From: Escherichia coli
GTDB taxonomy: Bacteria > Pseudomonadota > Gammaproteobacteria > Enterobacterales > Enterobacteriaceae
Assembly: GCF_003334255.1 (NCBI RefSeq)
Contig: NZ_QOWU01000049.1
Reading direction: 5' to 3' (one strand)
Length of the DNA stretch: 43,106 bases
Within the stretch, counting starts at the first letter, position 1. Every line of letters starts with the position of its first letter. Under the pieces are notes generated by a model. The model searched no databases and had not been told where the DNA came from. It was given only the letters and a program-made list of their open reading frames with translations. Made by a program: the position numbers and the translations under genes. Shown here one piece after another: positions 1 to 671 of the stretch.

Positions 1-77
1 AGCTGATAGAAACAGAAGCCACTGGAGCACCTCAAAAACACCATCATACACTAAATCAGTAAGTTGGCAGCATCACC
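1..77 (-). mobile_element. IS1 terminal fragment (left inverted repeat plus first codons of insA); element continues beyond the window start
   Basis: Reverse complement of nt 1-77 reads GGTGATGCTGCCAACTTACTGATTTAGTGTATGATGGTGTTTTTGAGGTGCTCCAGTGGCTTCTGTTTCTATCAGCT, recognised from memory as the IS1 left end. The selO reading frame resumes at nt 78. Confidence 0.85.
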
Positions 78-671
78 AGCTTTGATAATCAACCTGCCGT
101 CGCGTTGTGGAATTTACAGCGTCTGGCGCAGACATTGTCGCCATTTGTTGCCGTAGATGCCCTGAATGAGGCCCTGGACAGCTATCAGCAGGTTTTGTTG
201 ACGCATTATGGAGAACGGATGCGGCAGAAACTGGGCTTCATGACGGAGCAAAAAGAGGATAACGCGCTACTGAATGAATTATTCAGTCTGATGGCGCGAG
301 AGCGCAGCGATTATACCCGCACATTCCGCATGCTGAGTCTGACCGAGCAGCACAGCGCGGCGTCACCGCTACGTGATGAGTTTATTGATCGTGCGGCATT
401 TGATGACTGGTTTGCCCGTTATCGGGGGCGTTTGCAACAAGACGAGGTTAGCGATAGTGAGCGTCAGCAACTGATGCAAAGCGTTAACCCCGCTCTGGTA
501 TTGCGCAACTGGTTGGCGCAACGGGCGATTGAAGCGGCAGAAAAGGGTGATATGACGGAATTGCACCGCCTGCATGAGGCGTTGCGAAATCCTTTCAGCG
601 ACAGAGATGATGACTATGTCAGTCGTCCACCTGACTGGGGTAAACGGCTGAAAGTCAGCTGCTCGAGTTAA
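78..671 (+). pseudogene. selO: selO (ydiU) protein adenylyltransferase, 3' fragment of about 197 codons; 5' part replaced by IS1
   Basis: ORF-track protein [14 protein letters not shown]...KRLKVSCSS matches the SelO C-terminus. The frame is open from nt 78 ([10 protein letters not shown]...) directly after the IS1 end. The in-frame TAA at nt 60-62 lies inside the IS, so no N-terminal half is present. Confidence 0.8.

Follow-up and report, generated by a model that had tools for sequence, protein, structure and literature searches.

A simple IS1 insertion as the very probable cause of a split selO (ydiU) in a K-12-like phylogroup A Escherichia coli

IS1 of the IS1A/IS1B type, which is ~768 bp long and encodes InsA and the frameshift transposase InsAB', is a multicopy element of Escherichia coli K-12 and its relatives that normally duplicates 9 bp of its target (occasionally 8), favours AT-rich targets and promotes deletions of adjacent DNA. 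The pseudogenes driven by insertion sequences in Shigella/EIEC arise by the mechanism considered here, an IS landing in a dispensable gene. SelO (YdiU) is a protein adenylyltransferase/UMPylase (PF02696; PDB 6iii, 6k20, 9jym, 6eac), for which full-length E. coli structures have been solved (6iii, 6k20, 9jym). Its catalytic and nucleotide-binding residues are K107, D119, N244, D246, N247 and D256, its C-terminal regulatory domain steadies the catalytic domain "like a big clamp", a disulfide joins Cys272 to Cys476, the protein self-AMPylates at Ser477/478, and ydiU knockouts of Salmonella and of E. coli BL21(DE3) are viable (bioRxiv 10.1101/692707). At least three complete E. coli genomes carry IS1 insertions in selO at positions other than the one described below:

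L001, 2310-3077: IS1 in selO of strain BS90R-A at about nt 146-151, with the 9-bp duplication AAAATGCTG
L002, ~2296-3063: IS1 in selO of strain 2020S05-235 at about nt 99-106
L023, 2552-3319: IS1 in selO of strain NCCP 13717 at about nt 1385-1393, with the 9-bp duplication TCAGTCGTC

The annotations of these genomes give selO as a pseudogene or a shortened gene, and 9-bp duplications are present at the two copies where they can be read. The NCCP 13717 element lies ~15 codons before the stop codon, and the gene is still annotated there as a selO CDS of 465 aa.

The window, by which we mean the whole 43,106-nt stretch of DNA that was analysed, begins with an IS1 end joined to a truncated selO, and the best explanation, in which we have high confidence, is that a simple 768-bp IS1 insertion split selO in a K-12-like phylogroup A E. 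coli. The same gene was hit as in the three complete genomes, but the position is a different one (selO nt 844-852 here) and the backbones diverge (BS90R-A and 2020S05-235 at 98.4-98.5% identity); the four IS1 alleles, that of the window included, are independent events. The features at the left end of the window are as follows:

1 to 77, minus strand: IS1 left (IRL) end, 77/77 identical to an annotated 768-bp IS1A
~55 to 77, minus strand: IS1 terminal inverted repeat, part of the IS1 left end
70 to 43, minus strand: promoter-like site pointing into IS1, from a consensus scan
22 to 2, minus strand: first 7 codons of insA, part of the IS1 left end
78 to 86, no strand: copy of the target-site duplication AGCTTTGAT, selO nt 844-852, from comparison of the junctions in L005, L006 and L007
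78 to 671, plus strand: selO (ydiU) 3' fragment, codons 282-478 and stop, no start codon, a pseudogene fragment with E473K, 593/594 identical to K-12
219 to 671, plus strand: 150-aa ORF reported by gene callers for the leftover selO, with an internal ATG preceded by GGAG
675 to 866, minus strand: hemP, intact and convergent with selO (coordinates from the K-12 annotation; ORF 675-893)

The initial annotation had taken the first 77 nt for an exact IS1 left terminus, and this is borne out by alignment. Window 1-77 (AGCTGATAGAAACAG...GTTGGCAGCATCACC) shows 77/77 identity to the terminal 77 nt of the annotated 768-bp IS1 copy of E. coli BS90R-A (L001 2310-3077, + strand of the locus, annotated "IS1-like element IS1A family transposase"), which lies in the same orientation as the window's IS1 end. 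The transposase gene of that copy begins 55 nt from the matched end and, since the matched end adjoins the start of this gene, window 1-77 is the left end (IRL), standing in the window as the reverse complement of nt 1-77 of the element, with the terminal inverted repeat and its adjacent sequence (GGTGATGCTGCCAACTTACTGAT...) present. The insA gene would begin at window 22 and run leftwards, the body of IS1 lying beyond the left edge of the window, and at the place matching this start a 17-aa Zn_ribbon_InsA fragment has been called on the sibling contig L007. A 700-nt query found 77,715 places in 5,425 E. coli genomes, with the 77 nt recurring a median of ~10 times per genome, and the end is therefore that of a true multicopy repeat and no chance match; the element is also mobile, as a copy between ydiT and ydiS in strain G1/2 is absent from the window, where the only IS1 match is that at 1-77. 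Sibling contigs allow 107 nt of the left end and 120 nt of the right end to be read, both with 0 mismatches to IS1A. In its terminal 77 nt, 9-bp target duplication, AT-richer target and multicopy state the window's IS1 differs in nothing of kind from the known element, the comparison resting on 77 nt here and on 107 and 120 nt in the siblings.

Window 78-671 corresponds to nt 844-1437 of the 1,437-nt selO of K-12 MG1655, with 593 of 594 nt identical. The junction is placed at window 77/78 because the IS1 end GGCAGCATCACC includes base 77, a C that coincides with selO nt 843. Codon 282 opens at base 78, and the 594 nt make up 197 codons and a stop codon at 669-671; the sole mismatch, G to A at window 651, gives E473K, the encoded protein being identical to K-12 SelO 282-478 at 196 of 197 residues. 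The selO frame is closed by a stop inside IS1 (window 60-62) and offers no start codon before a TTG at 105, in agreement with the earlier reading of a frame that begins at nt 78 without a start codon and retains the C-terminal ~197 codons. Of SelO, the fragment specifies the C-terminal regulatory part with the conserved tail; its 150-aa product matches PF02696. An uninterrupted selO ORF of ~478 codons, joining the catalytic residues to the C-terminal domain and tail, is absent from the window, and the conclusion that no intact selO is possible at this locus is supported. Set against complete SelO/YdiU, the fragment is nonfunctional: it lacks a start codon, and K107-D256, the catalytic residues, belong to the part encoded across the IS.

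The 150-aa product is on record on seven contigs, including L007 and Logan ERR1948968_897 (L009), both of which carry the window's IS1 junction, while an exact product look-up returned no record of a 188-aa product starting at the TTG. A consensus scan of the + strand found no hybrid outward promoter at the IS1/selO junction. No polar effect of the insertion is expected, because the next gene, hemP, is convergent. The substituted residue of E473K belongs to WGKRLEVSCSS, a conserved C-terminal peptide that is subject to self-AMPylation and docks close to the active site; the same substitution occurs in strain G1/2, whose selO is intact.

In the mechanism that we propose, the 768-bp IS1 would have transposed into selO with its transposase oriented opposite to the gene, duplicating selO nt 844-852. 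The insertion would leave two products, on the 5' side an ORF for SelO residues 1-284 followed by 26 IS1-encoded residues (GNDSNLLIVFYVQIMPDDFVMQLHRF), and on the 3' side a promoterless fragment of codons 282-478. At the insertion site selO dips to a GC content of 0.42-0.47, an AT-richer trough that fits the target preference of IS1; together with the two 5' sites of the other IS1 alleles, the site falls in troughs of GC 0.40-0.47. The window would display the 3' side only, as a complete short-read contig whose assembler halted one k-mer (77 nt) into the multicopy IS1. The left edge lies exactly 77 nt into IS1, as does the end of the partner contig in GCA_003334255.1, and 77 is a usual largest k-mer of de Bruijn graph assemblers such as SPAdes. 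The window does appear to be a complete short-read contig, with a repeat at each end.

A simple insertion with a 9-bp duplication implies that selO nt 1-852 should abut the right end of IS1 elsewhere in the genome, and the product of this partner junction was predicted beforehand from the duplication as SelO 1-284, the 26 IS1-encoded residues and a stop. The predicted 310-aa fusion is matched exactly by a called gene on contig CBCRYS010000081.1 (contig 81) of GCA_965136505.1, and a form of it that ends after 77 nt of IS1 (309 aa) is found on contig QOWU01000017.1 of GCA_003334255.1, which breaks off after precisely 77 nt of the IS1 right end. The complete 5' part, from thrS through btuD, nlpC and ydiV to selO nt 852, is present in these assemblies, and on the 5' contigs (L005 and L006) the selO part ends in GGGCGTTACAGCTTTGAT and abuts the other IS1 end; with the boundary marked by a slash, both end "...GGGCGTTAC AGCTTTGAT / GGTAATGACTCC...", a second copy of AGCTTTGAT thus standing directly before the IS1 right end. 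On the 3' side, the window and contig 43 of GCA_965136505.1 (CBCRYS010000043.1, L007) both read "...GGCAGCATCACC / AGCTTTGAT AATCAACC...". Contig 43 shows the window's junction with 107 nt of the IS1 left end and agrees with the window over 10,594 nt without a mismatch; both junctions are thus present in a single assembly, GCA_965136505.1, on contigs 81 and 43, each with AGCTTTGAT. The 9-bp duplication is accordingly seen in sibling assemblies: GCA_965136505.1 shows it at both junctions, GCA_003334255.1 at the 5' one. In the independent Logan assembly ERR1948968, contig ERR1948968_897 has 27 nt of IS1 before the same 3' junction and agrees with the window at every position over 4,249 nt. L005 and L006 match strain G1/2 without a mismatch over their upstream 3,010 nt, and so share the backbone of the window.

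The initial annotation had considered that selO might be lost, and had proposed a search for the other IS1 end and the target-site duplication to learn whether the 5' half lies beyond the IS or is absent. Both the end and the duplication, the 9-bp AGCTTTGAT, were found in sibling assemblies, which share the identical junction and keep the 5' 852 nt of selO against the other IS1 end, a result that speaks for a simple insertion and against deletion. Judging by the identical junction, the identical backbone and the matching 77-nt overhang, the window's own genome probably carries the partner junction as well. The intact junction in a single piece occurs in 0 of 5,426 complete RefSeq E. coli genomes, and a scan of metagenome contigs with the 32-nt junction gave no match.

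Both junctions presumably still flank one IS1 copy, an adjacency that short-read contigs cannot prove. It is very unlikely that the simple insertion was followed by IS1-IS1 recombination, through inversion or translocation, that carried the two halves of selO to different chromosomal places: besides the reach of short-read contigs, the IS1 richness of close relatives (28-29 places in G1/2, G6/7 and G8) and the activity of IS1 in the lineage, seen in the ydiT/ydiS copy present in G1/2 and absent from the window, would suit such a history, but it has no positive support and both flanks are collinear with K-12 up to the junctions. We consider it highly improbable that an IS1-mediated adjacent deletion or other rearrangement removed the 5' 843 nt of selO, perhaps together with ydiV, nlpC and btuD, with the 3' fragment as the only survivor. 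The window taken alone, with its single junction and no 5' selO, would agree with a deletion of the kind that IS1 is known to promote; however, a deletion running from the IS1 end would leave no matching duplicated copy, whereas assemblies with the identical junction and backbone keep the complete 5' part with the 9-bp duplication. That the junction is an assembly artefact, an IS1 end misjoined to selO or a chimeric 77-nt contig tip in an organism whose selO is intact, is hardly credible, for although a 77-nt overhang is an assembler k-mer feature, independent assemblies with different settings, GCA_965136505.1 (107 nt of IS1) and Logan ERR1948968 (27 nt), agree on the junction to the base, and the reciprocal junction also exists.

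Window 77-42866 is collinear and gapless with K-12 MG1655, with 11 mismatches in 42.8 kb (99.974%), and the window shows at most five mismatches to the Symbioflor strain G1/2, whereas an alignment with E. coli B REL606 over 22.7 kb has 259 mismatches and three gaps. On these alignments the background is K-12-like phylogroup A and not B type. The earlier suggestion of a Shigella/EIEC or IS1-expanded B-type lineage is contradicted by the 11 mismatches to MG1655 and the 259 to REL606; an origin in E. coli B is rejected by the latter count, and one in Shigella/EIEC through the 99.97% identity to K-12, set against the known divergence between Shigella and K-12 and not by comparison with Shigella genomes. 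The locus shares its mechanism with the IS-driven pseudogenes of Shigella/EIEC but not their backbone. As for the IS1-rich background also proposed there, the idea may be fair in spirit, in that the query finds 28-29 places in G1/2, G6/7 and G8 against 7 in MG1655 and an IS1-rich group of relatives is plausible, while the window itself holds one IS1 end only.

Strain G1/2 has an extra IS1A between ydiT and ydiS (L021 8907-9674), with a 9-bp duplication corresponding to window 7769-7777. In G1/2, G6/7 and G8, which are near-identical to the window, this ydiT/ydiS copy is present and the selO copy absent, and in the window the reverse holds. Since the two copies differ in this way between the window and the three strains, IS1 has moved recently in the clade. 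In the REL606 annotation two neighbouring genes, ydiV (the anti-FlhDC factor) and ydiM, are pseudogenes with frameshifts (L024 3398-4551 and 23575-24287), and selO is intact.

A rough expectation for IS1 hits in selO can be obtained from ~58,000 chromosomal IS1-end places multiplied by 1.4 kb and divided by 5 Mb, which gives ~17 if insertions are uniform and independent, selO being ~0.03% of the genome. As a handful of hits is seen against the ~17 expected, IS1 insertions in selO are not in excess. A different lesion is found on Logan contig SRR24837540_58 (L008 6386-7821), where a 1-nt deletion in selO causes a frameshift at about codon 314 and yields 321-aa and 150-aa products with no IS; the gene may truly be a pseudogene there, or the deletion may stem from the assembly.

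The split selO is most likely a functional null or the source of an unstable product. The 5' ORF retains the catalytic residues and everything past residue 284 is gone, and loss of function would follow from the absence from the 5' product of the C-terminal clamp domain, Cys476 and the Ser477/478 tail. It is a distant prospect that the 5' ORF, free of the clamp and the inhibitory tail, is made as a deregulated nucleotide transferase, or that the recurrent IS1 hits reflect selection against SelO in gut-commensal E. coli. The view that loss of selO is unexpected in K-12-like strains carries little weight, given the viability of knockouts and the three other IS1 alleles in complete genomes. The interruption would be an ordinary strain-specific IS1 knockout of a dispensable stress-response gene in one commensal-type E. 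coli lineage.

Strains of this lineage offer natural selO-disrupted backgrounds for studies of SelO/YdiU. The junction GCATCACC/AGCTTTGAT can serve as a lineage marker, being present in at least GCA_965136505.1, ERR1948968 and, by way of the reciprocal junction, GCA_003334255.1, and the occurrence of GGGCGTTACAGCTTTGATGGTAATGACTCC in a genome would be a sign that the 5' half of selO has been retained. More generally, pending a look at the partner contig, a gene truncated at a contig edge beside an IS end is best regarded as interrupted.

The right end of the window likewise stops within an insertion sequence, here inside ydhS:

41744 to 42865, minus strand: ydhS fragment, 374 of 534 codons left, interrupted by an IS3-family element
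~42865 to 43106: IS3-family left end (~97% identity to annotated IS1203 copies), the element lying in ydhS

The same ydhS/IS3-family junction occurs in GCA_965136505.1 (on a 43,810-bp contig) and in GCA_001299315.1 (42,983 bp, 0 mismatches), and a 350-aa YdhS fragment is found on sibling contigs of both assemblies. The cut 62-aa OrfA product of the IS3-family element at the window end is widespread, with 173 blocks in the collection and many unrelated contigs among them; since so many draft contigs break off at one position of the IS, this end is a generic assembly break. Of the ydhS loci (L025-L032 among them), those on many NCBI and Logan contigs are called as two products (150-190 aa and 350 aa) with no IS, and those of several complete genomes, O157:H7 and O55:H7 among them, carry IS3-family or IS5-like (DDE_Tnp_1) elements; ydhS may be a recurrently broken gene.
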